From positions 1-64,000 of the forward strand of contig CAVXAT010000002.1 in assembly GCA_963759805.1 (NCBI GenBank): a stretch of 64,000 nt of DNA. The letters are read 5' to 3'. Each line of letters begins with the position of its first letter. Position 1 is the stretch's first letter. A model generated the notes under the pieces. It was not told the origin of the DNA, did no database searches, and saw only the letters and a list, made by a program, of their open reading frames with translations. Made by a program: the position numbers and the translations under genes. This document shows, one piece after another, positions 30,151 to 54,579 of this stretch. This DNA comes from an uncultured bacterium. GTDB taxonomy: Bacteria; Babelota; Babeliae; Babelales; RVW-14.

Positions 30151-30207
30151 TCATCCTGAATTTACCTGCCTCGCCGTAGCCACAGCATGGCGTAGGCGGG
30201 TTTCAGG
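30151..30207. repeat. REP-like hairpin (TCATCCTGAA..TTCAGG) carrying a 36-bp second hairpin in its loop (30165-30200)
   Basis: Comparison with the empty copies at 30246 and 54546. Confidence 0.8.
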
Positions 30208-30245
30208 CCTGTCCGAAGTGTTAAATTGCCTCCCTTAGCGCCATT

Positions 30246-30279
30246 TTGTCATCCTGAACTCGTTTCAGGATCCATGGAT
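30246..30279. repeat. REP-like palindrome
   Basis: TTGTCATCCTGAACTCGTTTCAGGATCCATGGAT, identical to 54546-54579. Confidence 0.9.
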
Positions 30280-30496
30280 TAATAACCTTCCTATTTTTGT
30301 TGTACTTAGGTTATCGAGTTCGCATTAAACAAAATATTTACAAATTATAGCCAAATTTTGGGTTAAATACATAAAATTTTTACATGTTTTTAAATGAAAA
30401 GGCTAATTATTAACTAAAACAAGCATAAATGTGCATTGCATAATAATTACTAATTACTTGAACCAGCACACCCATTTGCAAATCCAGCACACCCAT

Positions 30497-31645
30497 TGTT
30501 CTAGTCCAGATACATATGAGACTAAAAAGTTGAATTTTTGAATTTGCTTGAAATATAATAAAGACCTCCAGAAAACATAACAAACTTTTTAGGAGGCCTT
30601 TATTATGCAGACAAAACGTCTACACAAGAAATACTATTATATTTCTAAAATAGATGAAAGAGATTATTCAAAAATAGTTTGGGAGCGCAAGCAAAAGCTC
30701 GAGCTATTCGATACATTAATGTGTGATGGATGCTCGGAAGAAGTTGCCATCCAAGCAATTGGAATGTCTCGATCAAAATACTATCGATTAAAAGCTCGTT
30801 ATCAAAGAGATGGCCTTGCAGGCCTTGAGAATCAAAGTAGAAAACCACATCGCTTAAGACAACCTCAATGGCCCCCTGAAATTGAGGAAAAGGTATGTGG
30901 GATTCGAAATAAATTCCGTGTTTGGGGCAAGGATAAAATTGCTGTTATTCTTAAACGGGAATTCAATCTTAAGGTATCGATTAGCACGGTTGGACGCATA
31001 TTATCAAAGCTTATAAAAAATGGAAAATGTAAAACTGTTTCGTTTTATACTGGAAAATACTCACCAAAGCCAAGAATATTTAATGATCATGCTCAGCGGT
31101 TACCAACTGGAGCCAAGAGCAAAAGACCTGGAGAACTCGTACAAATTGACCATATGACGGTTAAACTTGATTCAGGAAAAGAAGTTAAACACTTTGATGC
31201 AATGTGTCCAACGACGCACGTTGCCGTGGGTAAAGCATATCGCCAAGCAACGAGTTTAATCGCAACAGATTTTCTTGATTTTATGGTTCAGCAGCTGCCT
31301 TTCCCGCTTTTATCAGTTCAGGTCGATGGGGGCAGTGAGTTCAAAGGTGAATTCGAACAAGCCTGTAAAAGTCGCAATATTCCCCTTTTTGTTACCCCTC
31401 CGAGATCGCCTCAAATTAACGGTGCTGTTGAACGGGGAAATGGAACCGTTAAGTATGAATTTTACAGCCTGTACGACAAAGGCGACAACCTTCAATTCAT
31501 TAATGACTCACTGCAACAATTTATGAATATATATAACAATTATCGACCCCATCGCAGTTTACAAGGACTTACGCCTATGGAATACTGTATAAAGATGGAG
31601 GTCTTTCAATCGAATTCTCAGTCTCATATGTATTGAACGCAGTCA
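30497..31645 (+). mobile_element. IS481 family insertion sequence
   Basis: TG...CA termini; IR core ATACATATGAGACT / AGTCTCATATGTAT; 5-bp TSD CCCAT (30492-30496, 31646-31650). Confidence 0.88.
30605..31636 (+). CDS. IS481-type rve/DDE transposase
   Basis: HTH region, LVQIDH, VQVDGGSEF, NGAVER, YNNYRPH..L..LTP. Confidence 0.92.
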   Translation: MQTKRLHKKYYYISKIDERDYSKIVWERKQKLELFDTLMCDGCSEEVAIQAIGMSRSKYYRLKARYQRDGLAGLENQSRKPHRLRQPQWPPEIEEKVCGIRNKFRVWGKDKIAVILKREFNLKVSISTVGRILSKLIKNGKCKTVSFYTGKYSPKPRIFNDHAQRLPTGAKSKRPGELVQIDHMTVKLDSGKEVKHFDAMCPTTHVAVGKAYRQATSLIATDFLDFMVQQLPFPLLSVQVDGGSEFKGEFEQACKSRNIPLFVTPPRSPQINGAVERGNGTVKYEFYSLYDKGDNLQFINDSLQQFMNIYNNYRPHRSLQGLTPMEYCIKMEVFQSNSQSHMY

Positions 31646-31742
31646 CCCATTTGCAAATAAAGAATTTATAAATTAATCTTGTTAGTAATCTAAGTAGAAT
31701 ATTGTGAGGTTATATTTTAATATTTTTTTGGGAGGTTATTTC

Positions 31743-33551
31743 ATGAAAATGTTTAAGAAAATAATATTATCGATTCTGATAGCTGGCTGCACAAGTTTTG
31801 CAGCATTTGGAGCGAAAGATTCCGGTACAGCGCCAGCAACTGCGCCCAAAGCAGATTATATAAAAATACAACTCAAGAACGGAAGGGTCCTGCATCTTCC
31901 CAAACAAGTCGCAAATATTACAAAATATTTCAACAACCCTACGCAACAAGCTATGCGCACTGGCATTGAAACCGGTGTTAAATTTGAAAATTTTGATGAT
32001 AACGTCGTTGAGCTAACCTGCAGCATGATTAAAGTAATTTACAACTTGCGCCAAGATCAAGAGTCCCAAGCATACAGTAATGATACCAAAAATAAAATGC
32101 TTCAAGATATACTTAATCACGCGCTTAATAATAAACGCACATTGCTCAAGCAAACTGATTTTGATATCAACCAAGCATGGTGCTTTGCCGATTATCTCGA
32201 TGGAATTCCAGAATTAGAACAAGCCATTATGGCTGTGTTGGCCAAAAACATTTGTACACCAGAATTTCTTGATACATTCCAAGGCAATGAATTTTTATCA
32301 GATGATCCAACCAATGATCTAACCAATCAAAAATTTAGGGAGCAATTAAAAGAAGCTTTAAATAAGTATATAAAAATACATCAGCCTGATGTTTATGCGC
32401 GCATAATGCCTTACAGCTGCTCTCAAACATTGAGGTTGCGGAACGACAGCGCCTGTAGCCTATGCGTTACACCAGATGGCAAGATAGTTTCTGGATCTTT
32501 TTTTGGATCCATAACCATATGGATCTGTAATCCTGTAAATCATAAATATAGGCTGCTTCAAACACTTAATGCTTCAATTGGCGGTCTCCCCGATCCGTGG
32601 GTGCTGAGCGTATGCGTTACACCAGATGGCAAGATAGTTTCTGGGTCTGGTAACAATATCATCAAAATATGGTCATATAATCCTGAAACCCTTCAGTACG
32701 CCCTGTCTCAAACACTTGATTCTACGGTTGACGGCCATACCGGTTGTGTCAATTGCGTATACATTACACCGGATGGCAAGATAGTTTCCGGATCGAATGA
32801 CAATACCATCAAAATATGGACCTATAATCCTGAAATCCATCAATACACGCTGTCTCAAACACTTAATTTTCCATTTGATGGCCCTGCCGGCCATACCTAT
32901 TGTGTCAATTGCGTATGCATTACACCGAATGGCAAATTGGTTTCTGGGCTTTATGACAACTCCATCAAAATATGGGCTTATAATGGAGAAACCCATCAAT
33001 ACACCACCCTCCCTCAAACACTTGATTCTAGAGTTGGCGGCCATACCAATAGTGTCAATAGCGTATGCGTTACGCCAGATGATAAGATACTTTCTGGGTC
33101 TTCTGACAGTACCATCAAAATATGGTCCTACAGTCCTGAAACACATCAGTACGCCCTATCTCAAACACTTGTCGTCGGTCATGTGGGCAGTGTTGAAAAT
33201 GTGTGTGTTACTCAAGATGGCAGGATCGTTTCAGCACTTGAGGTCCCCCCAGGTTGGGGCGACATTATGGACTCAGCCATAAAAATATGGTCCTATAATA
33301 CTGAAACCAATCAGTACGCCCTATCCCAAACACTTGATTCTACAGTTGGCGGTCATACCAGTTTTGTCAGGACGGCATGCATTACATCAGATGGCAAAAT
33401 AGTTTCCGGGGCTAATGACAACACCATCAAAATATGGGCGGCGCCTAATTTAACGATTGAGCAGATTATTGCACGGTTAAAAAAAGAGCTCGTACCAGCA
33501 ACTCAGGTACGACAGAAACACAAACATAGGACGCAGTCTTCGTGGAAATAA
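31743..33551 (+). CDS. Secreted Skp1/BTB-like domain plus WD40 repeat protein
   Basis: Signal peptide; N-terminal region ending FADYLDGIPEL (resembles Skp1 AANYLDI); about seven GH..V..TPDGKIVSGS.D.TIKIW repeats. Confidence 0.85.
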   Translation: MKMFKKIILSILIAGCTSFAAFGAKDSGTAPATAPKADYIKIQLKNGRVLHLPKQVANITKYFNNPTQQAMRTGIETGVKFENFDDNVVELTCSMIKVIYNLRQDQESQAYSNDTKNKMLQDILNHALNNKRTLLKQTDFDINQAWCFADYLDGIPELEQAIMAVLAKNICTPEFLDTFQGNEFLSDDPTNDLTNQKFREQLKEALNKYIKIHQPDVYARIMPYSCSQTLRLRNDSACSLCVTPDGKIVSGSFFGSITIWICNPVNHKYRLLQTLNASIGGLPDPWVLSVCVTPDGKIVSGSGNNIIKIWSYNPETLQYALSQTLDSTVDGHTGCVNCVYITPDGKIVSGSNDNTIKIWTYNPEIHQYTLSQTLNFPFDGPAGHTYCVNCVCITPNGKLVSGLYDNSIKIWAYNGETHQYTTLPQTLDSRVGGHTNSVNSVCVTPDDKILSGSSDSTIKIWSYSPETHQYALSQTLVVGHVGSVENVCVTQDGRIVSALEVPPGWGDIMDSAIKIWSYNTETNQYALSQTLDSTVGGHTSFVRTACITSDGKIVSGANDNTIKIWAAPNLTIEQIIARLKKELVPATQVRQKHKHRTQSSWK

Positions 33552-33599
33552 CTGTTCAGTTATAAAAATAGTTTGTCAGCAACAAATAATTTGGTTTCA

Positions 33600-33636
33600 T
33601 AAGTGGGTCGATTAAAAACCGGCCCACTTAATTTTT
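33600..33636 (+). terminator. Intrinsic terminator after the WD40 gene
   Basis: TAAGTGGGTCG...CGGCCCACTTA followed by ATTTTT. Confidence 0.7.
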
Positions 33637-33838
33637 GGGCGAATAATTAAATAAAATGAACGAACGTTTATGGCTCAATATACTCGATCTATTCTAAGCT
33701 TAACGTCTTTCATGGTCAAAATAGACGCATACTTTTGGCATTCCATGGTTAAAATAGACGGTTGCTTATGCCAAGGCCCAGCCCAAGCGGACAACGCCAT
33801 CATCTGCCATAGCATAGAGTACAAAAGTATGCTAAACA

Positions 33839-33869
33839 TTGACTTATGGTATTACTGCATGGTACCATA
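33839..33869 (+). promoter_or_regulatory. hicAB promoter with overlapping operator
   Basis: TTGACT-18 bp-TACCAT overlapped by the inverted repeat TATGGTA-N11-TACCATA. Confidence 0.55.
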
Positions 33870-33909
33870 ATAACAATGTTGTAAATTGGGTATAAAAAAT
33901 TGGACCCAA

Positions 33910-34164
33910 ATGAATAAAAAACAAAGCGAAACATTGCAGGCGATTTTTAAAGAGCCAACAAAATCAAATGTAAAATGGACAGACATTGAGTCGCTATTTA
34001 AGCATCTTGGGGCTGAAGTAAGTCAAGGCAACGGATCTCGTATAAGAGTTGCACTTAATGGGGTAAGAGCGGTTTTTCATAGGCCACATCCAAGAAAAGA
34101 GACCGACAAGGGTGCTTTGGTTTCGGTACGTAGATTTTTAGAAAATGCAGGGATAAAGCAATGA
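33910..34164 (+). CDS. hicA: HicA family toxin
   Basis: GNGSRIRV, FHRPHP motifs. Confidence 0.92.
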   Translation: MNKKQSETLQAIFKEPTKSNVKWTDIESLFKHLGAEVSQGNGSRIRVALNGVRAVFHRPHPRKETDKGALVSVRRFLENAGIKQ

Positions 34165-34481
34165 TGAAATATAAAGGCTATTTGGGCGAAGTTTCTTATG
34201 ATGCAAATGCAAAAATCTTTCATGGAGAAGTTCTAGGGCTAAAAGATGTTATTACGTTTCAAGGAACAACGGTCGTTGAACTTGAAAAGGCATTTAGAGA
34301 TTCAGTTGATGATTATGTAGCTTGGTGTAAAGAGCGTGGCGAAGAGCCTGAGAAAGCATTCTCTGGAAACATTCATATAAGAATCTCGCCTAACCTTCAT
34401 GCAAAACTTGCACAAACCGCTATAGTGCAAGGCGTAAGTTTAAATTCTTTGATTATTGATAAATTACAAAAAAATAAATAG
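34161..34481 (+). CDS. hicB: HicB family antitoxin
   Basis: YKGY, ITFQG, SVDDY, C-terminal RHH (RISPNLH...SLN); overlaps the hicA stop. Confidence 0.92.
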   Translation: MMKYKGYLGEVSYDANAKIFHGEVLGLKDVITFQGTTVVELEKAFRDSVDDYVAWCKERGEEPEKAFSGNIHIRISPNLHAKLAQTAIVQGVSLNSLIIDKLQKNK

Positions 34482-34519
34482 ACGATATGGCGTAACACTC
34501 TTTATTTAATCGATTTCTA

Positions 34520-35824
34520 CTAACCCATCATATTTTCAATGTCATCAGCAGATTTGGGCAAGGCCCCACTCAGACAAACGACACCGTCATCAGCCATTGC
34601 GTAATCGTCTTCAATTCTAATCCCAATGTTCTCTGCTTGGATATAAATTCCTGGCTCGATGGTGAAGACATCGCCCGGTTGAAGCGGAATTTCGCCATTG
34701 CCAACGTCATGAACATCAAGGCCAAGAAAATGCCCTATGCCATGCACAAAGTATTTTGAATAGCCTAACTTTTCTAAAAATTTAACGGCCTGATGGTGCA
34801 GTGATTTCTCAGGCAAATTTGGATTATTCAGATACATTCCGGGCACGGCCAGAGATTCAATATATTTCTGTGTTTGCAACACAACATCATAAATCTCTTT
34901 CTGTCGCACGGAAAATTTTCCACCAACCGGAAAAGTCCTAGTTAAATCTGATGAGTAGTTCCCATACTCAGCACCGATATCCATAACGACCAAATCGCCG
35001 ACAGCAAGCTTGTCAGTGTTGTTACAAGAGTGTAAAGTTGTTGTATTTTTACCCGTCGCAACAATGCTGGGAAATGCCGGAACTGCGCCGGCAGCCTCTT
35101 GAAAAATATACTCTATAATTGCCTGAATCTGATACTCATACTTACCCGGCTCAATACTTTTTGCAGCAGATTGAATGGCAAGTGACGTAATTTGTGCCGC
35201 TTTATAAATCAAGTTTATTTCATGATCTTCTTTAATGCGCCTGGATTTATGAACAATGCCTGAAACATCAGCAATTGTAATTTTATAATCAGACAGCCAG
35301 GCCTGAAAGCACGAAACTAGCTGCATTTGAGTAAAATATCTTGAGTTTGTGATTGAATCCATCAATGTATAAAGAACCCCGCCAATGCCAATATTTTTCT
35401 TTATATCGGCAATAATCTCGCTGTAACGCTCAGGTGTAAAAAATGGGGCACTCGAGTAACCCTTGATTTGCGCTCCAAGATATTTAATCTGATCGACAGA
35501 CAAATTTGCTTTATCGCTTTTTATGGTCAAACCCGTTTGTACCCACTGTTCACGACTTTGACTATAAAAAGGTAGATACAAAAGATCAGTACCATTAACA
35601 TCAATACCATCAAAATAGCAGCACATAACAACTGCCGGCTCTGTTATTCCGGTTAAATAGTAAAATGATGATTCCTGTTTAAACACATGACGTGCTGATT
35701 CAAAATCTGCTATCAGCAACAACGCTCCAGCCCCACCCTTGGGGTTCAATAATTTGATCTGCTCTATAATTTTTGTTCGTCGATTTTTGAAACGATTTAA
35801 TTTCTTTTCAGGCATATAAAACAT
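34520..35824 (-). CDS. pepP: Xaa-Pro aminopeptidase (M24B)
   Basis: FYYLTG, DIGAEY..SDLTRT, HGIGHFLGLDVHD, TIEPG, IRIEDD. ATG at 35824 preferred. Confidence 0.9.
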   Translation of the reverse strand: MFYMPEKKLNRFKNRRTKIIEQIKLLNPKGGAGALLLIADFESARHVFKQESSFYYLTGITEPAVVMCCYFDGIDVNGTDLLYLPFYSQSREQWVQTGLTIKSDKANLSVDQIKYLGAQIKGYSSAPFFTPERYSEIIADIKKNIGIGGVLYTLMDSITNSRYFTQMQLVSCFQAWLSDYKITIADVSGIVHKSRRIKEDHEINLIYKAAQITSLAIQSAAKSIEPGKYEYQIQAIIEYIFQEAAGAVPAFPSIVATGKNTTTLHSCNNTDKLAVGDLVVMDIGAEYGNYSSDLTRTFPVGGKFSVRQKEIYDVVLQTQKYIESLAVPGMYLNNPNLPEKSLHHQAVKFLEKLGYSKYFVHGIGHFLGLDVHDVGNGEIPLQPGDVFTIEPGIYIQAENIGIRIEDDYAMADDGVVCLSGALPKSADDIENMMG

Positions 35825-35864
35825 CTCTTCTCCCGTTTCGACTAATATCTTCTGAAACTCGCAT

Positions 35865-36019
35865 CCTTCGACAGGCTCCCAGACTTCGCCCTTCCCACTC
35901 CGCTCAGGTAGCTCCGAGGGACAGGTCGTGGCTACGCCGGGCACGGCAGGACGAGCGCCATGAAGTAGGCGCGCTCGTGGTGAGCTCGTCGAACCATCAC
36001 CCTGTGACGCGCCGGGCCT
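35865..36019. repeat. Inverted REP doublet; the left REP carries a 69-bp nested insert (35879-35947)
   Basis: CCTTCGACAGGCTC|insert|AGGACGAGCG paired with CGCTCGTGGTGAGCTCGTCGAACC (35972-35995). Confidence 0.85.
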
Positions 36020-38413
36020 CTACTGCTCCCTGCGCATTATAGGCTGACGTCTAAATTTTTTAGCAAATGTACCTAGCGAATCTAACTTTAAAGCAAAAAC
36101 AAATGTATGCTCTGTCGTATTATTACCATACTCACGATATTTTTTAACCTCAATTCCAAAATATAAACCCCAACAGTGTCCGTTTATTTCCATTCTTACT
36201 CTATGAATCAAAGGGTTTAAGCCTTGTAAATCTGCAAAATGGCAACCCTTTTCATCATAAAACTGGCCATCATAACAAAGTACTACCTCTTTGCTAATTG
36301 GAATTGCAATATTCACAAAAATAAAATGCGGAACATTTGATAAAAGCTCACGGATCCGTTGTAATAATGGGTACTGATAAAAATAACCGGCGGAGATGTT
36401 TAGCTTATCTTTAAAAATACCTAACCCTATCTGAGACTGAAGTAAACGAGCCCGACCAAACTCAACTTCTTGAGCTAAAGAAAGTTTTAAAATACTGTAT
36501 CCAATACTAAAATCATAACTAAGCGGTAAAAGATGCCGTTGTCCTACTCCGCGACGCAGGTAAAAAATATCGGATTGACTATAAAAATCATACCCCTGCT
36601 CAATATTCAGATCGATATTCCAGTTTTTCCAATTCAAATTATTGGAAATATTTCCGGACAGTTCGTTTATTGGATATGCTCGATCCCACAAATCCATGTA
36701 ATACCAATTTTTTTGATAAAATTTAGGCAAGAATGTCCACTTAATTGTCGGCTGCATAAAATTAGAGCAACTAAAATCATCACTATAACTGGTGACCTCA
36801 GGCAGAGCCCATTCAGCACCATATTTTGAGTAAATTCTATAAGCTCCATTCCCCAACAGATGATCCTCGATAACATTTTTTTTATGAATATCTTTTGAGA
36901 AAGTGTTACTTCTAAACTGAACTTGCGGTTCAGCAAAAAGCCTAATGTTGCTATTTTTTAAATTAATGCGCGAATGAAGATTCCCCTTATATCCAGCCCT
37001 GAATACATCATGCTTTTTAGGAGGAATCAACAACGATTCATTAATCATTCTTGAATTTACAAAGATACGCCCTATCTTAATTTGGCTACAAGAGATCTCA
37101 TCAAAAAACAGGTCATGCCGATAAAATAATGTATTATATAGGCTCCAGTTGGAAGCATTCCACTCAAAATGAGGTAGCTTTACCGTGTTAAACCTATCTT
37201 CAATCTCTTTTTTTGTAACAAAATCATCATTAAACTCAATAACTTTTTCTTTATGATCATTAGCGAATTTTTTAGCAAAAACAATCTCCTCCCGAGTAAG
37301 ATTTAAAAATTGCTTACGACTTGTACGCTCTTGATCCCATTTTAATTCAACCAAATGCTTACTGGATAACCCCCTAAAAATAACCGAATTAAAGAATGTG
37401 TCATCAACCTCTTCAATGTTATTATAAAAGTAGTATCCAATCTGTTTATCCGTACCAAAATCTGCACGGATAAGACTTCTAAAATCAAAATTTCCAAGAT
37501 GCGTCAGATATGTAAAATCCTTACCCTGAATCCAATACCTATGCTCTGTTTTTGGAACAATATTGTCATTTTCTAAGGCATACGAATCGTTGACTACGGC
37601 GTACTGCCCATAGGCAGTTGTAAATGAATCGGGAGACCGCGCCCATCTAAATTCATCTGAAAATACACAGCCTCTTCGCGTTTTAAAATCTAAGCCAAAC
37701 GTAGTATCACAATGTCGATTGATATATTTGTAATACTCTACTTTCACGCCAAAACCAAGACTATAATCAAATGAAAATTTTGGAATTAAAAAACCTGACT
37801 TTGAACGGCCCTGAATTGGCAAAGCCATCCTTGGCACATAAAAAACCGGAATTCCACCTGTTTTGAAAAGAATATTCGACGCATCTATGAAATAACTTCC
37901 GTGTATAACAGCCTTTGTCGCACTAAAATACCAGTGTAAATCCTCTTGATCACAAGCCGAAAACAGAATATCTTCCATTCGCCAGTTAAAATCATTAAGT
38001 TTTTGTGCCCTCTTCGCAGAAATATACCCTTCATCCATATGAATTTTTATATTCTCGGCATAACCTGTTTTATTTTCAAGATTCAAAAGAATATAATCAG
38101 TTAAAATTACAAAATCATTATTTTCAATTTTTACCGGACCACATTCAGACATCTTTGCAATCAGTGTCTGCTCCTTACGATCTATCTCTACCCTGTCAGC
38201 AGACAAACGAAATTTTTGATCTATGATCGCATCGACGGCGCCTTCAAAAATGATTCTGTTCTCATCAATAACCGTCTGTTTTAAACTGTTTACGCGCAAA
38301 AATTTACCGGACGTTGAGGATTTTATAGCGGCATTTAAATTAAAAGAAAAAAATGTAAGAATAAGCAGCAAACCCGCTTGTCGCAAATAACTTTTAAGCA
38401 TATTCAAAATCAA
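36020..38413 (-). CDS. lptD: LptD-like outer-membrane assembly protein
   Basis: Signal peptide, jellyroll-like N-terminus (ADRVEID, FSAC..WYFSA), RSKSGFLIP, C-terminal HCW, aromatic-rich beta pattern. Confidence 0.75.
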   Translation of the reverse strand: MILNMLKSYLRQAGLLLILTFFSFNLNAAIKSSTSGKFLRVNSLKQTVIDENRIIFEGAVDAIIDQKFRLSADRVEIDRKEQTLIAKMSECGPVKIENNDFVILTDYILLNLENKTGYAENIKIHMDEGYISAKRAQKLNDFNWRMEDILFSACDQEDLHWYFSATKAVIHGSYFIDASNILFKTGGIPVFYVPRMALPIQGRSKSGFLIPKFSFDYSLGFGVKVEYYKYINRHCDTTFGLDFKTRRGCVFSDEFRWARSPDSFTTAYGQYAVVNDSYALENDNIVPKTEHRYWIQGKDFTYLTHLGNFDFRSLIRADFGTDKQIGYYFYNNIEEVDDTFFNSVIFRGLSSKHLVELKWDQERTSRKQFLNLTREEIVFAKKFANDHKEKVIEFNDDFVTKKEIEDRFNTVKLPHFEWNASNWSLYNTLFYRHDLFFDEISCSQIKIGRIFVNSRMINESLLIPPKKHDVFRAGYKGNLHSRINLKNSNIRLFAEPQVQFRSNTFSKDIHKKNVIEDHLLGNGAYRIYSKYGAEWALPEVTSYSDDFSCSNFMQPTIKWTFLPKFYQKNWYYMDLWDRAYPINELSGNISNNLNWKNWNIDLNIEQGYDFYSQSDIFYLRRGVGQRHLLPLSYDFSIGYSILKLSLAQEVEFGRARLLQSQIGLGIFKDKLNISAGYFYQYPLLQRIRELLSNVPHFIFVNIAIPISKEVVLCYDGQFYDEKGCHFADLQGLNPLIHRVRMEINGHCWGLYFGIEVKKYREYGNNTTEHTFVFALKLDSLGTFAKKFRRQPIMRREQ

Positions 38414-39024: not shown

Positions 39025-39052
39025 GCAAAGCCTATTTTAATATCTTGATAAT

Positions 39053-40801: not shown

Positions 40802-40956
40802 GACTTGTCCTTACCTTAATTTTTAACAAGACCTTAAATTATAAGCACACTAATTTTAACGAGAAAACTAAATTTTAACAGAGAATAGCCCATCAAGCTA
40901 GCCCTGATTTCAAACCATTCGGTTTTCAAGTCTTCGACTTTATACCATTAGACTTT

Positions 40957-41808
40957 TCAAACCAACCCACCCAATCCCCGAACAATAGCCTCCAAAACGA
41001 CGTGCCAGTCATCATCCTGGTTAACTCCAACCTCAATCAAAAGGGCTGGGGCAACAATTCCACACAACGGTTTGAGCGGAATGCCGTAAAAACCCCCAAA
41101 ATCAAATATTTTCTGGTTGTCTGCCCCTGAAAGTGCATTTGACAACTGTTGACCAATATTTTTTGTTCTGAAAATACTAACTTGATGCGCCTGCAAAACC
41201 GATATCATTTTAAGAGATGGGAATGTCCTGTCAACAAAATCGCCAACAGGGTCTGCCACATGCTGGTAAACATAGACCTTTGGCCTAACTGACTCTAATT
41301 TAAAAAGATGGACACTTATGAATAGATCTACGTTTAAACGGTTGGCAAACGAGGCATTCTGAAAATCGACTATCTTTTCCCCGGGTACACGGGTCAAAAC
41401 AACCCTGAAATCATACGCTCGTTCAAAAGCACTTTGAAGCTCTTGGGCAAACCTAAACGTCGCGGCACGCTCAAAACCACTCAAGCTACGCCCCGGATCC
41501 CCCGCATGTCCGGCGGGATTGATCATAATGACCTTCTTTGCACCCTTGAGAGAAGGATCAAGAAAGGGGGCATTAGCGTAAGCCATAAAATTAGTTGCGA
41601 AAGTAGACAACCCCGCCATCAAAGTTAATGTGATTAAAAATAGTCTTCTTGCACAACTTGGAATTTTAAAAAGGCGCGCTCGTGGTGAGCTTGTCGAACC
41701 ATCGCCCGGCTTGTCCGTCGTAGCTCGAAGAGCGAAGTCGGAAGGGCGACGGGCCTGGTCATGCAAGAGATCTATTAGTCTGATTAAAGCTGATTTAAAT
41801 ATCTTCAT
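40957..41808 (-). CDS. N-acetylmuramoyl-L-alanine amidase (Amidase_3-like)
   Basis: INPAGH, ER, VVLTR, ANRLNVDLFISVH, PALLIEVG. The start is uncertain and the N-terminus overlaps a REP. Confidence 0.8.
   Translation of the reverse strand: MKIFKSALIRLIDLLHDQARRPSDFALRATTDKPGDGSTSSPRARLFKIPSCARRLFLITLTLMAGLSTFATNFMAYANAPFLDPSLKGAKKVIMINPAGHAGDPGRSLSGFERAATFRFAQELQSAFERAYDFRVVLTRVPGEKIVDFQNASFANRLNVDLFISVHLFKLESVRPKVYVYQHVADPVGDFVDRTFPSLKMISVLQAHQVSIFRTKNIGQQLSNALSGADNQKIFDFGGFYGIPLKPLCGIVAPALLIEVGVNQDDDWHVVLEAIVRGLGGLV
41672..41756. repeat. REP composite with a 33-bp hairpin insert (41710-41742)
   Basis: Matches 53790-53837 except that the 3-nt loop is replaced by 36 nt. Confidence 0.88.
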
Positions 41809-44975: not shown

Positions 44976-45075
44976 TTTTTATCTTTCTAAAATTATACGC
45001 TTAAATGAAAGCCTACAAAAGCTTACAGATAAAAATACTTTTATCAAGTAAGATTATTTAATAGAAAAACCAAAA

Positions 45076-45107
45076 AAGACGGTAGATTTTTAAAATTCTA
45101 CCGTCTT
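45076..45107. terminator. Intrinsic terminator
   Basis: AAGACGGTAGA-TTTTTAAAAT-TCTACCGTCTT. Confidence 0.75.
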
Positions 45108-45161
45108 AAAACTTCTTACTTACAAACTTCTTAATCTTTTCAGATTAAAGATCAATTCGGA

Positions 45162-46007: not shown

Positions 46008-46236
46008 GATAACCTCCATATTTAATAAAACTAAAAAAACCACCATCTTTTTAAACTAAAATTTATCACTTGTAATATTATACTAGCAGACAAAAATACT
46101 AAAATCAAAGGCCCCCACCCCATTGCAAACTTGAAAAACAAAAAATATACTCTATCATCACATAAGATTTTAAATAAATTATTAAATAAACTATCCAATT
46201 GTGTGTTAGGAATTAGATGTGTGTGTTAGGAATTAG

Positions 46237-48309
46237 ATGTCTGAATCATTGACAGAAAGTAGCTTGAAGTTTTGGGAAAAGCAGGCTCAAAAATTACCTT
46301 GGTTTAAAAAATGGAATCATGTTCTAGCATGGAATGAACCATTTGCACACTGGTTTGTTGGCGGTCAAATAAATGCCTCATACGCATGTCTAGATATTCA
46401 CATTAAAAACGGATTGCAGGACAAAACAGCAATCATCTGGGAAAGTGAGAATGGTAGCTCACAAACTCTCACATACGGCCAACTTTATGATCAAGTAAAT
46501 AAATTTGCCAGTTTTTTACAAACACAGGGTGTTAAAAAGGGCGACATCATCGTCATTTATCTTCCAATGATTCCTGAAGCAATTGTGGCCATGCTGGCAG
46601 TGGCACGGCTTGGGGCAACGCATTCAGTAGTGTTCTCAGGCTTTAATACAACGGCATTAAAAGATAGAATTGTCGACACTCAAGCCAAATTCGTAATTAC
46701 AACTGATGCGGCATTTTATAGAAACAAAAATATTGTCCCGAAATATGTTGTATCAGACGCAATCAGACAGATTAGCCAGACTGCGCATGACAATGCAGCG
46801 CAAGCAAATTTTGTTAAAAAAGTTATTGTAATTAAGCGAACAGAAAATTCAATAACTATAAATCCCGATCTTGATGTTATTTACGACCCAAACACCTCAA
46901 CGGGTCCGATGGAACCTAGCCATGCGGAATTTGTTCCCGCCGCCGTGCCCGGCGTAGCCACGACCTGTCCCTCGGAGCTACCTGAGCGGAGTGGGAAGGA
47001 CGAAGCCTGGATGCCTGTCGAATCCAATCACCCTCTTTTTATTTTATATACATCCGGAACTACAGGAAAACCCAAGGGCATCGTCCACTCAACCGGCGGA
47101 TATTTAACTTATGTTTATTCAACAATTAAATGGGCTTTTAATATCAGCAAAGATTCAATTTACTGGTGCACGGCAGACATTGGGTGGATTACGGGGCATT
47201 CGTACGTAGTCTACGGCCCCCTCATGCACGGGGCAACAATTTACATCCGCGAGGGCGCACCTGACTGGCCAACTCAGGATGTCTGGTGGAAGGCAATTGA
47301 AAAGCATAAAATTTCAATTTTTTACACATCCCCAACGGCATTACGTATGTTCATGAAAATGGGTAACGAGAATATTTTAAAACACGATTTATCCAGTTTA
47401 AAAACGCTTGGTTCGGTTGGCGAACCGATAAACCCTGAAGTCTGGCGATGGTTCAATGATGTTATCGGACAAAAAAGGTGTCCGATAATTGATACGTGGT
47501 GGCAGACGGAAACAGGTGGTTTTATGATCTCTCCAACCGCAGGACTTAATCCTACCACAGAGCTTAATCCAATTGCAGAAATAAAACTTAAACCCGGGTC
47601 CGCAACCTTTGCATTACCGGAAATTGATGCTGACATTGTTGATTCAGGCGGACAATCCGTACCACCCGAAACCAAAGGGTTTCTTGTAATCAAAAAGCCT
47701 TGGCCGGGAATGGCAATTGGAATTCATAACAATCCACAAGCATTTCGTGAGATTTATTGGTCAAAGTTCCCAAGCATGTATTATTCAGGCGATTATGCAA
47801 TAAAAGATTCCGAAGGGTATTTCTGGTTACTTGGCCGAGCAGATGAAGTATTAAAAATCTCCGGCCATAGAATTGGAACATCAGAAATTGAAAGCATAAC
47901 ACTTGAACATGAAGCAATTGCTGAAACTGCAGTTATCGGAATTCCTGATGAGATAAGAGGAGAAGCAATAATTATATTCTCGATTCTCAAAACAAGTTTC
48001 ACCGTGAGCATTAGCACTGAACACGAAGTATTAAAACACGACGTATTAAAACACGACGTGTTGGAACACGAAGTGTTCAAGCAAGAAATCTTGCAAAAAA
48101 TCAGAACTCAGATTGGTGCATTTGCAACTCCAAAAGAGATTCACTTTGTTGAAAGTTTACCAAAAACCCGTTCGGGGAAAATAATGCGTAGACTGCTTAA
48201 AGCAGTTGTGCAGGGTCAAGCAATCGGAGACCTGTCCACATTGGAAGATGGAACGTCGATTGAAGAAATTCAAGCAATTTATAATATGATTAAGAAACAG
48301 TTGGGATAA
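46237..48309 (+). CDS. acs: Acetyl-CoA synthetase
   Basis: LYTSGTTGKPKG, TADIGWITGHSY, DTWWQTETG, PKTRSGKIMRR. Confidence 0.96.
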   Translation: MSESLTESSLKFWEKQAQKLPWFKKWNHVLAWNEPFAHWFVGGQINASYACLDIHIKNGLQDKTAIIWESENGSSQTLTYGQLYDQVNKFASFLQTQGVKKGDIIVIYLPMIPEAIVAMLAVARLGATHSVVFSGFNTTALKDRIVDTQAKFVITTDAAFYRNKNIVPKYVVSDAIRQISQTAHDNAAQANFVKKVIVIKRTENSITINPDLDVIYDPNTSTGPMEPSHAEFVPAAVPGVATTCPSELPERSGKDEAWMPVESNHPLFILYTSGTTGKPKGIVHSTGGYLTYVYSTIKWAFNISKDSIYWCTADIGWITGHSYVVYGPLMHGATIYIREGAPDWPTQDVWWKAIEKHKISIFYTSPTALRMFMKMGNENILKHDLSSLKTLGSVGEPINPEVWRWFNDVIGQKRCPIIDTWWQTETGGFMISPTAGLNPTTELNPIAEIKLKPGSATFALPEIDADIVDSGGQSVPPETKGFLVIKKPWPGMAIGIHNNPQAFREIYWSKFPSMYYSGDYAIKDSEGYFWLLGRADEVLKISGHRIGTSEIESITLEHEAIAETAVIGIPDEIRGEAIIIFSILKTSFTVSISTEHEVLKHDVLKHDVLEHEVFKQEILQKIRTQIGAFATPKEIHFVESLPKTRSGKIMRRLLKAVVQGQAIGDLSTLEDGTSIEEIQAIYNMIKKQLG
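46942..47010 (+). repeat. 69-bp nested palindromic insert, in frame within acs
   Basis: 67/69 identical to the reverse complement of 35879-35947; encodes AVPGVATTCPSELPERSGKDEAW. Confidence 0.95.
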
Positions 48310-48333
48310 ATTCCACAAAATTAAGAATATAAA

Positions 48334-48918: not shown

Positions 48919-49375
48919 TCCAAAGATTTCTTGGACTCCCTTGAAGCAATTCCTCTATCAGATCATCCTCCTGTTGACGCCTCTGCTCAGAAGAAAGCCC
49001 CTGTTGTTCCAATTTCATTGAATGCTCCACAACGCTAAGGCGTTTTCTTGCAACCAATTGCGCTCTTTCTTTTAGTATCTGATCAAAGGGCTTGTTTGGA
49101 ATGAAAAAATATACGCAACGACAATTCATCGCCCTTGCAACCTGATCAAGAGCCTCTAAGGAGATAGTTCGCTCCTTTTCACGACGTTCAAATGCCATCA
49201 CATTCGACTGAGTACACCCCAACCGCTTGGCAAGTTGCTGTCCTGATAACCCCAGAACTTTACGAATAACCTGAATCCATCCATTCTTGGGAACATGTTT
49301 TTGAGCTAAAATGTTAAGGTCAGTTAAGCTCGCCTGTACTTGATCACGCATCATTTTCTGAAAATTTTTTCTCAT
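48902..49375 (-). CDS. Mobile mystery protein A (XRE-type HTH)
   Basis: PKNGWI..RKVLG, QLAKRLG, HSMKLEQQ; adjacent to protein B. Confidence 0.88.
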   Translation of the reverse strand: MRKNFQKMMRDQVQASLTDLNILAQKHVPKNGWIQVIRKVLGLSGQQLAKRLGCTQSNVMAFERREKERTISLEALDQVARAMNCRCVYFFIPNKPFDQILKERAQLVARKRLSVVEHSMKLEQQGLSSEQRRQQEDDLIEELLQGSPRNLWSDDEI

Positions 49376-49376
49376 A

Positions 49377-49430
49377 ATAATCACCTATAAGTATTAATTT
49401 AATTAAAAATTATAATCTATAAGTGATTAT
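49377..49430. promoter_or_regulatory. Inverted repeat upstream of mobile mystery protein A (candidate operator)
   Basis: ATAATCACCTATA ... TATAAGTGATTAT, 12/13 complementary. Confidence 0.5.
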
Positions 49431-49498
49431 ATTGGAAAAATTAATATAATTAAAAGGGTTTGCTAATTTTATATATTTCTACTATTTAACAAACGAAT

Positions 49499-50359
49499 TT
49501 AAGCCGTAACTGGAGAGTGTTGTTGCACTGCAGGGATTTCTTTCGCATTATCTCGATTTGCCAAAGACTCTGCCAGCATTAAAGATCTTTCATCAAGATT
49601 ATATGCCCTTACTTTGACATCGGTATGTCCATAGCGAATACCTACAAAATTCATCCCCAACTCTTGGGCGGCAACTTTTACAGATTCCACGTTTTTTAGC
49701 TTATCATCAACAAAAACAATCTTTTTTACTTTCAATTCCGGTTTACCCAACAAAAAGGCCTTAAGCGCCGGCCCTTTGTAATACCCATCACAAAACAAAA
49801 TGCCATTACAATACTTGGACCCTAGAGTGGTAAGTGTTGCATTAATTCCATTTTCAGAAATGGCTCCCTGTTCAACATCAATTCCAACTGATTTTAGCTG
49901 GTTAAAAACGCTCTCTATCAGACAGAGAGACCTAACAGTTAAAATCATCACGCTATGGCCATTGTTTTTCAAGTCTTTGATCAAATCTTTTGTACAAGAT
50001 TCAACAGCCTGAACCGCCGCAGAACGCTGAATTTCTACGTAAACTGGAAGCAGTTTAGACTTCGCATCTGCATTTGATAACCCATTATCTTCAAGTTTGT
50101 TCATCATTGCACAAAACCAAGCATCAAAGCCATAATCCACTTTACCTTCAACAAGTACATTATCGTAATCAAAGATAAATAAAGTTTCAGGCTCAATAAA
50201 TCTTTTGACATCTTCAATAGCATTACTTTCTATGATCTGAACGGATGTATCCGCAGGTACACCAATGGGAAGCTTACGCGAGCCCTGAAATTTATAAAAA
50301 GCAATTGCAACAGCCAACGAACATAATGTTAACACAAATAATTTTGTAATTTTTTTCAT
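49499..50359 (-). CDS. DUF2608-like HAD-superfamily protein, membrane-anchored or exported
   Basis: FDYDNVL, ILTVR, GILF...KG, FVDDK. Confidence 0.75.
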   Translation of the reverse strand: MKKITKLFVLTLCSLAVAIAFYKFQGSRKLPIGVPADTSVQIIESNAIEDVKRFIEPETLFIFDYDNVLVEGKVDYGFDAWFCAMMNKLEDNGLSNADAKSKLLPVYVEIQRSAAVQAVESCTKDLIKDLKNNGHSVMILTVRSLCLIESVFNQLKSVGIDVEQGAISENGINATLTTLGSKYCNGILFCDGYYKGPALKAFLLGKPELKVKKIVFVDDKLKNVESVKVAAQELGMNFVGIRYGHTDVKVRAYNLDERSLMLAESLANRDNAKEIPAVQQHSPVTA

Positions 50360-51093
50360 GATACTCTCTTAAATATTGCTAGAAACTCTTTGTTACCAGA
50401 CTTATCGCCTTTGATTGGCGATTCCATTAAATCCATCATTTCAAAACCAAACTCCAGCATCCCATTTTTTATTTTTTCGACAACTTTTTTGTGCACGTCA
50501 TCGTCTTTAACTATTCCGCCACGCCTAACATCTTCTCGCTCTGCCTCGAATTGAGGCTTGATCAATGTAATAATTCTTGCATCGGGCTTTAATAACTTAC
50601 AAACCGCGGGCATAACTTTAAGCAAAGAGATAAAAGACAGATCAAGAGTTGCCAAATCTACCAACTCCGGCAAAGAGTCAAGATAACGTAAATTTGTTTT
50701 TTCGTACAAGATAACTCGAGGATCTTTGCGAAGTTTTTCATGAACAATTCCAAAACCGACATCCACGCCGTAAACACGTTTTGCACCTCGCTGCAGCAAG
50801 CAGTCAGTAAAACCACCTGTTGAAATTCCTGCATCAAGAACCACCAAGCCTGTAACATCAATCTTGAAATTATCCAAAGCACCTTCAAGTTTAAATCCTG
50901 CACGGCTTACAAATTTTGGCGTTTCATTTTCAAGCTCAATTTTTGCATCAGGAATAACCTGTGTGCCGGCCTTATCTACAATCTGGTCATTAACCTTGAC
51001 CTTGCGCTGCAGAATAAAACTTTGTATCTGATTTCTTGATAAATTCGGGAATCGCTCCTGAATAACCAAATCTAACCTCTTTTTCTCAGCCAT
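50356..51093 (-). CDS. tlyA: TlyA family rRNA methyltransferase
   Basis: S4 domain, VSRAGFKL, STGGFTDCLLQRGA, IKPQFE, GNKEF. Confidence 0.94.
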   Translation of the reverse strand: MAEKKRLDLVIQERFPNLSRNQIQSFILQRKVKVNDQIVDKAGTQVIPDAKIELENETPKFVSRAGFKLEGALDNFKIDVTGLVVLDAGISTGGFTDCLLQRGAKRVYGVDVGFGIVHEKLRKDPRVILYEKTNLRYLDSLPELVDLATLDLSFISLLKVMPAVCKLLKPDARIITLIKPQFEAEREDVRRGGIVKDDDVHKKVVEKIKNGMLEFGFEMMDLMESPIKGDKSGNKEFLAIFKRVS

Positions 51094-51101
51094 AATTTAT
51101 T

Positions 51102-51153
51102 CAAGCATAACTTTTATGCAAGCATAAGTTTTATGCAAGCATAAGTTTTATGC
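51102..51153. repeat. Three tandem 17-bp self-palindromic units
   Basis: CAAGCATAA(C/G)TTTTATG x3; the last unit overlaps the stop codon of the protease gene. Confidence 0.9.
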
Positions 51154-52764
51154 TAGCCCCTCCAATAATTTAGATTTTTTATAGAAGAAGCGATCTGAAA
51201 GCATCTCTTCATCCTTCAAAAGCTTCTCAATTGAAAGTACCGCACATAATTTATCATCCGTCGTAATAGTTATATAACCACTCTGCTTGCCCTTAAGCAC
51301 AGCAGCTCTAAATTCAGCCAACGTCTTAATCTCTTCCCCATTGATTTCTGTAATTATATCACCCGGACGTAAAATTCTGGTTTTACGCGCCTGAGAATTT
51401 GGCAAAACATGCGAAATAATAACTGCAGGATCGTACTGAATATCAACACGCATGTATTTGACTAAATTCGAAGCGCTGTTAATCAATTTTTGTACGTGAT
51501 TCAATGTCAACTGCATAACAACCATTCCACCTATAACTTCGTAATCAGTCATATCCGGTTCAAATTCAGGATAAACGGCACGAACCTCAGGAATATATTT
51601 GTGTTCAAGCGGAAATGTAAAAACTCTCGCAGCCCCCTTGCGATACATCAGTAATCTTAGATTGTCCCCCACCTTCATTCTATTCAAAAGTTCAAATAAC
51701 GAAACTTTATCTTCACTCCATGGCACATTCATCTCACCATACATATCAACCTTATATCCGTTGATCTCATAAAGCATGTCACCGTCTTTTACGCCAACAC
51801 CACTGAGCAGAGTATTCTCAAAAACTTTAGCAACATACCAGCCACCCTCTTCCGGATTTCCAAGATAATCAACAAGTTCAGGTGTTGAAGCGGTAAACAG
51901 ACATCCAAGCGTTGGACGACGAAGCAATTTAACTTTATATAAATCCTTCAGTGCAGTTTTAACCTCATTAATTGGAACAATATATCCAACATTTTGAGCA
52001 TCTGCAATTATGCAGGTGTTAATACCAATGACTTCACCCTCAACATTAAGAGAAGGCCCACCGGAATTTCCAGGATTGAGCGGAGCGGTTATCTGAATAT
52101 ATCCAAAGTTTCCATGACGCTCACGACCACTAACAATTCCCAACGTACTTTTTAATCTGAATTGAGCCAGAGGATATCCCAGCGCAAGAACCTCTTGTGA
52201 GCGTAAAATTTGATCAGAATCACCAAGAGCCAGATAAGAAATTGTTTTCAATTTTGTCTGTATCTTTTTCTTGGACTCATCTGTTAGCTTTAACAAAGCA
52301 ATATCACGCTCAGGGCTGACACCAACAATTTGAGCATCAAAACGCTCCATTCCAAAAGATGGAATTTGAATTTGAACACTTATGGCCTGAGCAATAACAT
52401 GGTAATTTGTAATCAAATCTCCCTCGGCGTTAATGAAAAAACCACTACCGGCGCCTTCATTCTGGCTGGGAGTTTTGTAGGGCTCCGTCCAGTTAAACTC
52501 AGATGTTTGTGAAAATACCTGTACGACGGTATCCTTCACCTGCTTCTGCACATCAAGCCAAGTTTTTCCCGTCTTTTGCGAAACTACCCTTGAAGGAGTA
52601 ATCTTTGTCTCTTTATTTGCATCTGCTGTTTTTTCTATGTCTACGGCCTGTCGATATTTTCTGAATGCAAGTCTATTCATAAAACTTGTATATAATACAT
52701 AAACCGCAATTACGGCGACAAGTGTCAACAGAATGGACAGCCCACTCTTTTTAAAACTTTGCAT
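51148..52764 (-). CDS. HtrA/Deg-like trypsin protease with PDZ domains
   Basis: GSGF, TNYHV, DIALL, NPGNSGGP; PDZ-like GDIITEING. Confidence 0.9.
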   Translation of the reverse strand: MQSFKKSGLSILLTLVAVIAVYVLYTSFMNRLAFRKYRQAVDIEKTADANKETKITPSRVVSQKTGKTWLDVQKQVKDTVVQVFSQTSEFNWTEPYKTPSQNEGAGSGFFINAEGDLITNYHVIAQAISVQIQIPSFGMERFDAQIVGVSPERDIALLKLTDESKKKIQTKLKTISYLALGDSDQILRSQEVLALGYPLAQFRLKSTLGIVSGRERHGNFGYIQITAPLNPGNSGGPSLNVEGEVIGINTCIIADAQNVGYIVPINEVKTALKDLYKVKLLRRPTLGCLFTASTPELVDYLGNPEEGGWYVAKVFENTLLSGVGVKDGDMLYEINGYKVDMYGEMNVPWSEDKVSLFELLNRMKVGDNLRLLMYRKGAARVFTFPLEHKYIPEVRAVYPEFEPDMTDYEVIGGMVVMQLTLNHVQKLINSASNLVKYMRVDIQYDPAVIISHVLPNSQARKTRILRPGDIITEINGEEIKTLAEFRAAVLKGKQSGYITITTDDKLCAVLSIEKLLKDEEMLSDRFFYKKSKLLEGLA

Positions 52765-52862
52765 TAAAAAAGCCTTTCAATTCTGGAACTAATTCAGCGA
52801 TATTTAATTTATAATTCTAACAAAATGAAAGAAAAACACCACGCTTTGTGGATAAATTTAAG

Positions 52863-53729
52863 TTACTTGTGAAAAATCGATTCCTGTAGGGCATCATGAA
52901 CTTCACACGAACAAGATTCGTGATCCTGAGCTTCATGTCTCTGAAATCTAAATTTTAGATATAGAAAAATTTGGGATATTTTAATAAAAATAGCTTTGCA
53001 CAATGCAAAGGCAATGTAAGCAGCATAAATAAAGAATAAAACCTTTATACATCCAAACACCATTGCAAACGCTACAAAAATAATTCCGGCCAAGGCATAA
53101 AAGCCTTTTCTAATGTGTTTAAATGTTGGAATTCTTACCGAACATATCATCAATCCGGACAGAACAATCATGGCAAAGGCCAAAGCAAACAAAGAAAAAA
53201 GCGATTTAAACGACACTTGATGCATATTCAGAATAAGTGAGGCGAGAAAACAGGCTGCAAATGGGGTTGGAACTCCGATGAAAGACTTTGACTGCTCGTT
53301 ATGCGTTATATTAAATTTTGCAAGGCGTAACAGGCCGCATGCTAGGAAAAGACCACAAATTCCCATACCGATTACACCAAATTTTTTAAGCTGCCAACAG
53401 TAGACCAAAAATGCCGGAGCAAGGCAAAAAGTTATGGCATCGGACAATGAATCAAGTTGTAGGCCAAACTCGCTTGATGAACGAACCCAACGAGCAACCT
53501 GACCATCAAGCGCGTCCATTAAAGCACCAAGAAAAATACAAAATGCCGCTGCAACCCAGGCCTCACGCGCTGCAAAAATTATAGAACAAAAACCAAAAAA
53601 CGAGTTGCCTAACGTGAAAATGTTTGGGATAACACGCAAACCCCTACGAAATGGAATTGGGCGAAAATTGAACCCTTTTCTACCTCTTCCAAATCGATGG
53701 GTACATTTTGATTTAAAATTTAAAGCCAT
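52863..53729 (-). CDS. pssA: CDP-diacylglycerol-serine O-phosphatidyltransferase
   Basis: IPNIFTLGN, DALDGQVAR...G.QLDSLSD, RLAKFN, FIGVPTP. Confidence 0.88.
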   Translation of the reverse strand: MALNFKSKCTHRFGRGRKGFNFRPIPFRRGLRVIPNIFTLGNSFFGFCSIIFAAREAWVAAAFCIFLGALMDALDGQVARWVRSSSEFGLQLDSLSDAITFCLAPAFLVYCWQLKKFGVIGMGICGLFLACGLLRLAKFNITHNEQSKSFIGVPTPFAACFLASLILNMHQVSFKSLFSLFALAFAMIVLSGLMICSVRIPTFKHIRKGFYALAGIIFVAFAMVFGCIKVLFFIYAAYIAFALCKAIFIKISQIFLYLKFRFQRHEAQDHESCSCEVHDALQESIFHK

Positions 53730-53789
53730 AAAACCCCCTTGGTTTTTGTTATCAACTAGAACTCTTCTGTAACTATGCACTTTTTACTA

Positions 53790-53837
53790 GCCCGCTCGTG
53801 GTGAGCTTGTCGAACCATCGCCCTATGGGCGACGGGC
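53790..53837. repeat. REP-like palindrome (empty form)
   Basis: GCCCGCTCGTGGTGAGCTTGTCGAACCATCGCCC-TAT-GGGCGACGGGC. Confidence 0.88.
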
Positions 53838-53859
53838 AAAGTTAGGAAAAAAGTCTCTT

Positions 53860-54498
53860 TCATTTCGCAACAACCACTTGAGCGTACTTAATAACTTTAT
53901 CTTTGAATCGATAACCCTTACTCATCACCTCAATGATCTGCCCTGATTTATGCCCAACTGAATCAATTTGTGCAACAGCTTCGTGAAGTTCCGGGTTAAA
54001 AACTCCAGAAGCAGAGATCTCTTCAACGCCCAACTCTTGCAAAGCTTTTTTAAAATTCTTCTGCACGACAGATAACCCATCAATCCATTGTACAACAGCA
54101 GGCTGGTCACTCACAATTGATGAACTTAGGGCTCTATCCAAATCTTCAATAACAGGAACTAATTTCAAAATTATAGACTCTTGTGCAACGGCAGTCCACT
54201 CTGCCCTTTGTTTCTCAACCCTTCGCTGGTAATTCTGCAAATCGGCAGAGACACGTAAAAATAGATCTTTGTAATTAGGCTGCTCGGCTTTAGATTCGAC
54301 TTTTGGCTCAGTTTTTTGTTCAGTCTTTTCTTGCAATTCAACTTTTTCTTGTTGCACAGCTTGCTCTAGCTGTTCACCCTTTTCTGGTTGCACAACTTGT
54401 TCATGTTTCGAGGCCGCAACAACTGCTGGCTCTGTGTTCACAGATTCAGTTTTCTCAGAATTTGAGTCATTATGCCCGTTTTTACCGCTGTTATCCAT
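53860..54498 (-). CDS. grpE: Nucleotide exchange factor GrpE
   Basis: RVSADLQNYQRR, FNPELHEA, KGY. Confidence 0.94.
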   Translation of the reverse strand: MDNSGKNGHNDSNSEKTESVNTEPAVVAASKHEQVVQPEKGEQLEQAVQQEKVELQEKTEQKTEPKVESKAEQPNYKDLFLRVSADLQNYQRRVEKQRAEWTAVAQESIILKLVPVIEDLDRALSSSIVSDQPAVVQWIDGLSVVQKNFKKALQELGVEEISASGVFNPELHEAVAQIDSVGHKSGQIIEVMSKGYRFKDKVIKYAQVVVAK

Positions 54499-54545
54499 TT
54501 TAACCTGCCCTTTTCAACCTGAAAATCGTATTTTATTATTCCGAA

Positions 54546-54579
54546 TTGTCATCCTGAACTCGTTTCAGGATCCATGGAT
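54546..54579. repeat. REP-like palindrome
   Basis: Identical to 30246-30279. Confidence 0.9.

Follow-up and report, generated by a model that had tools for sequence, protein, structure and literature searches.

A small hairpin unit nested in palindromic repeats and tRNA genes of a Babelota genome, and its link to a Slx1-like GIY-YIG nuclease family

How does a hairpin that carries no gene come to lie in the loops of other palindromes, in tRNA genes and in copies of itself? The question is raised by the first 64,000 nucleotides of contig C2 (hereafter the window) from an uncultured Babelota bacterium, whose genome (1.5 Mb, G+C ∼37%, assembly completeness 89%) I label G000, with contigs C1 to C20 and so on; relatives carry G numbers and individual loci L numbers. 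The original prediction, made on this stretch, described a discrete and tiny hairpin, non-coding, found within host palindromes and within its own copies with no duplication of the target, and the genome-wide copies support this description, with tRNA genes as a further site of nesting. The unit is tied to a family of Slx1-like GIY-YIG nucleases, and not to the two other such families considered here. I regard it as likely, at a probability of only about 0.52, that it spread with the help of this nuclease into folded single-stranded DNA, and was then carried by a miniature inverted-repeat transposable element (MITE) and filtered by reading frame.

The unit is a GC-rich hairpin of 30–46 bp, most often 30 bp. 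Its basal stem has 6 bp and leads to a 3x3 internal loop, which reads GNA/GNA on the G-rich strand; above this stands an apical hairpin, closed by GC and variable in size, and a tail of 4–5 bases completes the unit. A structural detector returned 94 matches in the genome, of which one chance long-loop match was removed, leaving 93 units; it found none in five block-shuffled genomes. With a pattern blind to pairing at five stem positions, Watson-Crick pairs occupy 246 of 330 positions in the units of this genome (shuffled mean 171, maximum 193) and 268 of 315 in loci of other genomes (shuffled maximum 181), although these counts are not probabilities, since the copies are related. The tag at the stem foot is CCTG in 44 units, CTTG in 28, CGTG in 17 and another sequence in 4. 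The internal-loop triplets also co-vary, GTC occurring only with TAT (19/19) and a left TCC only with TCC (5/5). At the gathering score Rfam had no match in the window and matched tRNA alone on 14 nuclease loci, a weak sX4 match being part of a tRNA-Ser.

A tRNA or another hairpin-repeat motif flanks 67 of the 93 units, as compared with 2.8% for randomly chosen positions. Of the 42 tRNA genes, 14 have a unit at their 3' end. The targets include host palindromes, other units, the D-arms, T-loops and CCA ends of tRNAs and, in frame, protein genes. The ends are precise across these many unrelated targets, which have no common flank; many left flanks end in CT, and at C5:88847, C9:12845 and C5:6193 the 4-base tail of the insert is repeated in the target. 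Filled and empty versions stand next to each other in a tandem array (G000:C19:8446-9209), where 5' fragments of tRNA-Val, each split by a +35 unit in the D-arm, precede the intact tRNA; two fragments hold an additional +33, giving periods of 102 and 69 bp. A similar array at C14:13118-13720 involves tRNA-Arg, with +34 in the T-loop.

Within the window, the three cases of filled and empty sites originally described are all present, and the 24/33 identity and G-C/C-G swap between two 33-bp units were reproduced. Two palindromes serve as hosts, here named A and B, and the sites are as follows.

30149-30207, plus strand: host A, a CGTC-type palindrome, with filled loop
30165-30200, minus strand: 36-bp unit in that loop
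30247-30279, plus strand: host A with empty 5-nt loop
35865-35957, minus strand: host B palindrome, of the type flanking UPF0213-like nuclease genes, interrupted by a 69-bp insert
35879-35947, plus strand: the 69-bp composite, a 36-bp unit with a nested 33-bp unit
35893-35925, plus strand: inner 33-bp unit of the composite, the same event being copied to 5 places in the genome
41710-41742, minus strand: 33-bp unit in the loop of a MITE shell's small tail hairpin, with a paralogous short loop at 53790-53837
46942-47010, minus strand: second 69-bp composite, in frame (23 aa) in the acetyl-CoA synthetase gene (acs), with an exact empty site in relative G156
54547-54579, plus strand: host A with empty 5-nt loop, also present at the orthologous G156 site

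The acs composite was not part of the original prediction. It is identical to the copy at 35879 at 67 of 69 positions, so nested composites move as a block. Genome-wide, 33 host-B anchors comprise 14 empty sites, 9 with +36, 1 with +69, 6 with larger composites and 3 without a right anchor. The coding stretch beside the acs composite (window 46942-47022) and the host-B donor flank have ∼10 bases in common, a hint of microhomology or target mimicry.

The empty sites first proposed are real, but they are paralogous rather than orthologous. Orthologous sites were examined separately in close relatives, a comparison that the original prediction had called for, and empty ones were found. The same-genus genome G156 lacks the inserts at four window sites: its acs is without exactly the 69-bp composite (23 aa), its amidase has ∼44 residues fewer in the N-terminal region, and the repeats are absent from its lptD/pepP and pssA/grpE spacers. 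G163 agrees with it at both sites aligned. Host A at 54547 is shared with G156 and is therefore older than the other inserts; around 30150 the alignment to relatives is too poor to call. The units were thus gained recently relative to same-genus genomes.

Besides UvrC, the genome encodes five stand-alone GIY-YIG genes. One is bracketed by host A (C1:132943), two are bracketed by host B, and two follow a tRNA and a unit. The labels Ssn-like, UPF0213-like and Slx1-like used for these families are my own, drawn from structural and sequence matches together with characteristic motifs. The unit matches the leader of the Slx1-like gene, which is anchored at tRNA CCA ends and encodes an 80-aa protein whose predicted fold is a bare GIY-YIG domain (pLDDT 95), with HIGLE/Slx1 and UPF0213 structures as its nearest matches. 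Most of these 80-aa genes (L012-L040) have a tryptophan codon directly before the stop, a conserved ending that may mark the right boundary of the cassette.

Across 150 genomes of the phylum, excluding G000 and including kin that are not independent, gene and unit occur together in 84, the gene only in 10, the unit only in 15 and neither in 41. The resulting odds ratio is 23, compared with 3.2 for the UPF0213-like gene and 1.5 for the Ssn-like gene, five genomes having been removed from the Ssn presence list as cross-matches. The median number of units per genome is 6 with the Slx1-like gene and 0 without it, and 12 where Slx1-like and UPF0213-like genes are both present, versus 3.5. The flanks of the best-scoring loci from these genomes place the pairs on a diagonal. 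Among 29 Slx1-like loci the unit lies upstream in 26, with host A in 1 and host B in 0; among 29 UPF0213-like loci host B is found in 25 and the unit in 5; and among 26 Ssn-like loci a strict detector finds host A in 11, while 3 of the 26 have the unit and none has host B. This under-counts host A, since most Ssn-like flanks look CGTC-like by eye. Four further loci of the Ssn search were cross-matches or near threshold, and three of these, L096-L098, were excluded. The off-diagonal counts are 0–5, several of them, by eye, being units nested in host repeats, and distant control stretches hold 0–1 repeats.

The pairing extends beyond the phylum. In the best 80 of 585 GTDB relatives, the unit lies upstream in 52 of 59 non-Dependentiae loci (0.1 expected) and in 16 of 21 Dependentiae loci, some records having been assigned to these classes by similarity; the former include Alphaproteobacteria, Verrucomicrobia, Planctomycetota, Nitrospirota, Patescibacteria and others. 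Where a tRNA lies upstream, the unit begins exactly at its CCA in 56 of 60 loci, covering 13 amino-acid types. In 43 of 52 cases, against a mean of 8.4 in shuffles, the triplet that follows the CCA is matched by a complement further downstream, with which the 5' arm of the unit co-varies; the leader also has an alternative pairing.

The original prediction also held that inserts always come in multiples of three, which proved to be a bias and not a rule. Each unit was excised in silico and its junction sought elsewhere in the genome, giving empty sites for 49 of the 93 copies, or 29 events. Of these, 23 are multiples of three, the exceptions being 31, 34, 34, 35, 46 and 67 bp. All nine events in which a copy lies well within a long open reading frame (ORF) are multiples of three, which is largely a matter of definition; among the remainder the figure is 14 of 20 (p = 0.001 against one third, the events not being independent and one being ambiguous between 33 and 34). 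Of the exceptions, +31 has 13 exact empty sites and +35 has 21; only 3 of 15 unit cores at tRNA ends are multiples of three, and G038 has a 31-bp tandem period. An intrinsic rule was rejected on these grounds. Adaptation of the unit to avoid stop codons was likewise rejected, with 4.53 of 6 frames stop-free per unit and 4.55 in shuffles. The bias is most readily explained by survival in coding DNA, an ordinary effect, together with the modal size of 30 bp.

In the proposed mechanism, the Slx1-like nuclease would bind the zipper-like stem formed by the GNA/GNA internal loop of the G-rich strand, and would nick at junctions of single- and double-stranded DNA. The repair that follows would use another copy as its template, in some cases with a few bases in common as primer, and would thereby place the unit at the nick with no duplication of the target. 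Composites would travel as cargo, either in a TA-duplicating MITE shell or as the whole 69-bp block, and only multiples of three would survive in reading frames, enriching 30-, 33- and 36-bp donors. The data above establish the association and the targeting; that the nuclease cuts, and that insertion follows in this way, I infer.

Several observations weigh against this. GIY-YIG nucleases cut DNA but are not known to join it, so that the insertion step would have to be borrowed from host repair. This assembly holds no intact copy of the Slx1-like gene, one copy being cut by a contig end and the other frameshifted, and among the 150 genomes there are both the 15 with a unit but no detected gene and the 10 with the converse. 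With a downstream copy in 4 of 29 loci, the unit is essentially an upstream feature, in contrast to the repeats that bracket the Ssn and UPF0213 genes, and might therefore be a regulatory RNA leader. The excess of multiples of three outside ORFs is not explained by selection at the site, and stop-free frames show no excess. Finally, linkage does not tell the unit's own nuclease from that of the target repeat as the cutter. A broader version, in which each of the three single-domain GIY-YIG families owns a hairpin repeat and replaces a transposase, the unit, as the smallest of these repeats, hopping by nick-and-copy into any folded single-stranded DNA, is tentative, and I hold it to be somewhat improbable. 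If true, it would be an undescribed transposition route and a source of peptide insertions across many phyla.

The unit might also need no dedicated enzyme and be spread by gene conversion or host template switching where hairpins stall replication; its link to the nuclease would then reflect no more than the hairpin's role as structured RNA leader of the cassette. The ∼10 bases common to the acs site and the host-B donor flank, the three repeated 4-base tails, the tandem arrays of tRNA fragments with units and the alternative pairing of the leader all fit this. However, it accounts poorly for precise ends over many unrelated targets with no common flank, and for the way copy number follows the Slx1-like gene, with a median of 6 units per genome where it is present and 0 where it is absent, and I consider it rather unlikely.

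Alternatively, the nuclease of the target repeat could make the cut (Ssn-like at host A, UPF0213-like at host B), the unit being filler captured during repair. The presence of all three nuclease families in this genome, the higher unit number where Slx1-like and UPF0213-like genes coexist, and the resemblance of the acs target to host B are in line with this. Against it, the D-arms, T-loops and CCA ends of tRNAs also receive units, as do units themselves, and none of these is host A or B; SsnA, moreover, cuts upstream of its hairpin according to the available text of its description (PMC11893778), whereas most inserts here are in loops. This makes such a role distinctly unlikely.

The original prediction had named an HUH or RAYT-like enzyme as a candidate mobiliser, and a RAYT was rejected on the results that follow. 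Movement without target duplication and a single-strand hairpin logic would suit a HUH tyrosine transposase (RAYT or IS200/IS605 TnpA) acting in trans, as would the CT at many left flanks, CT being the dinucleotide cut by TnpA_REP. The genome contains five Y1 matches, two of them identical copies and each with its own ends. The four that were scanned score best as IS200/IS605 TnpA and reach 23–36 bits with the RAYT model (cut-off 80) or do not match it; no repeat family brackets any of the five genes, and the tetranucleotide GTAG was not found at the unit stem foot, where CCTG, CTTG or CGTG stand instead. Such an enzyme is thus a very unlikely agent. Movement through an RNA copy (tRNA-promoter read-through and reverse transcription) or by the IS110 recombinase is barely credible, even with units at tRNA 3' ends and the IS110 core coinciding with the CT at which several units entered other units, as units lack a CT core at both ends, the predicted donor guide is unmatched, and no native reverse transcriptase was found in the genome. 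The sole one present, a 599-aa protein on a 4.8-kb contig (G000:C20:3019-4815), resembles by eye that of a eukaryotic non-LTR (long terminal repeat) retrotransposon and is probably bin contamination.

Returning to the nuclease-assisted reading, its carriage step concerns an outer tier that the original prediction missed, a MITE shell with TA duplication around two of its three filled sites and one empty paralogue.

35843-36022, no strand: decayed MITE shell with two host-B modules, between a lptD-like gene and pepP, absent from G156 and G163; ends approximate
41641-41774, no strand: MITE shell of 134 bp with both TA (net 132, or 44 codons), absent from G156 and G163
53757-53857, no strand: MITE shell with a host-B module and an empty tail hairpin (53790-53837), absent from G156; right end approximate

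The second of these lies in frame in the N-terminal signal region of the amidase gene (40957-41808, minus strand). The shells, of which 10 distinct ones are bounded by the inverted repeat on both sides, qualify as MITEs in having terminal inverted repeats (17–19 bp), target duplication (TA at both ends in most) and no coding capacity. If the TA is taken as duplicated, their net length (length minus 2) is a multiple of three in 8 of 10 (99, 123, 159 four times, 189 and 219), and the two others both lie outside long ORFs; coding insertions of shells likely amplify cargo whose length is a multiple of three. The shell termini may resemble RPE-1. No autonomous transposase with shell ends was found in this genome, which yielded only an IS630 fragment, and a candidate partner in G155 (one long pair) turned out to be a shell with an IS110 inside. 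As outer ends of the nuclease cassettes, shells were rejected, with an end in range at 1 of 27 Ssn-like, 0 of 31 UPF0213-like and 0 of 111 Slx1-like loci. A plasmid collection gave no match to 35840-36030. Two shells elsewhere have other contents: L226 (G155:C41:6608-8275) holds host-B repeats, one interrupted by a different IS110, and L232 (G149:C3:1590-1979) encloses two host-A repeats and an apparent decayed Ssn-like gene fragment. A second family of MITEs, whose inverted ends measure 14 bp, is inserted in host A at C1:41148-41422 and C1:159369-159617, and its end motif lies directly 3' of the filled host A in the window (30208-30222).

Of the three tiers first proposed (host repeat, unit and IS110), the IS110 tier holds, all three copies lying in a unit, while the count of tiers was incomplete for want of the MITE shell.

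1-1211, minus strand: IS110 element at the CT core of a hairpin unit, transposase at 47-1024
1034-1125, minus strand: predicted bridge RNA, with putative right target guide 1077-1083, left target guide 1100-1108 and left donor guide 1034-1042

Positions 1209-1235 hold the remainder of the split unit together with a host-A tail, and the three copies interrupt the unit at the same CT core. The transposase has the DEDD and Tnp20 domains of its family. The fold of the non-coding end forms a loop whose motifs stand where IS621 has its left and right target guides, and it is by this analogy that I infer the guide roles (PMC11208160, available text). The right guide matches all three insertion sites, the left only in part, and no perfect target for the guides was found in the genome. 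The guide loop corresponds to target and donor, except that no right donor guide was identified in the predicted RNA. By this match the unit may serve as landing site for the element.

Each tier has a published analogue, here compared with the available text of the sources. Ssn/NTS-SRM likewise couples a gene for a single-domain GIY-YIG protein to hairpin repeats that are dispersed and carry an unpaired, oriented tag; there the related SsnA binds a hairpin repeat and cuts single-stranded DNA beside it (Chenal et al., 2025, PMC11893778; a pointer to SsnA is also given in the Minerva preprint 10.64898/2026.09.22.753630). Host A with the gene at C1:132943 shows the same layout of repeat, gene and repeat, the hairpin repeats being inverted. 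However, the published SRM pattern occurs in 0 of 52 host-A copies, and the unit is partnered instead with a Slx1-like protein of 80 aa, whose leader stands on one side only, at tRNA ends. The available text of PMC11893778 covers only cd10448, with no cd10449, cd10456 or tRNA and no mention of nesting, and suggests a domesticated mobile element. Host A also fits, by text description, the CGTC repetitive extragenic palindromes (REPs) of Di Nocera et al. (2013, PMC3733652), for which a CGTC or TGTC tag, a stem of 8–9 bp and a loop of 4–5 nt were required: it has a TGTC tag, a stem of 8 bp that opens with AT, a loop of 5 nt, a CCA tail and head-to-head dimers. The published REPs likewise have intragenic copies and no transposase. 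The unit and host B differ in having other tags and an internal loop (3x3 in the unit), and the unit falls outside the CGTC definition. As non-autonomous hairpins, with doublets and a gene bracketed by repeats (hosts A and B), the repeats resemble the REP/REPIN-RAYT system, but without its RAYT and GTAG tag.

The in-frame insertions recall the Rickettsia palindromic elements (RPE), palindromic repeats found in unrelated genes (review PMC10969869), as the shells of ∼100–220 bp are here: conserved genes carry in-frame insertions with an empty orthologue (acs +23 aa, amidase ∼+44 aa). Rickettsia, though, belongs to a different phylum, and the NCBIfam RPE models did not match the amidase insert peptide in the one frame searched. 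Targeting of palindromic repeats by IS110 elements is already known, IS621 inserting in REPs with a CT core and a guide loop matching the repeat (Durrant et al., 2024, PMC11208160) and ISPpu9 being a further example; the target here is instead the small unit, and the left guide is partial at the three sites. Among the papers listed by searches of openly accessible literature, which for Chenal et al. meant the text alone, none describes the unit, its insertion into other hairpins or a cassette anchored on tRNA genes.

These repeats bear on how RAYT-less REP-like repeats and RPE-like coding palindromes multiply, which the available text of PMC3733652 treats as an open question for CGTC repeats and on which that of PMC11893778 raises a hypothesis for Ssn. 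As this genome offers three pairs of nuclease and repeat, exact points of insertion and orthologous sites that are empty, cut sites are directly comparable with insertion sites, and two further families of tiny, possibly hairpin-specific nucleases of single-stranded DNA would extend the Ssn toolbox.

Elsewhere in the window, elongation factor G (21642-23707) is split into two overlapping ORFs of 427 and 281 aa, by a frameshift or an assembly error. An AT-rich perfect 24-bp inverted repeat with a 1-base spacer, unrelated to the hairpin unit, lies at 26307-26355, and a WD40 ORF at 31704-33551. The 1196-aa ORF at 54922-58512 combines a ubiquitin C-terminal hydrolase domain with pentapeptide repeats, and is likely a host-interaction protein.

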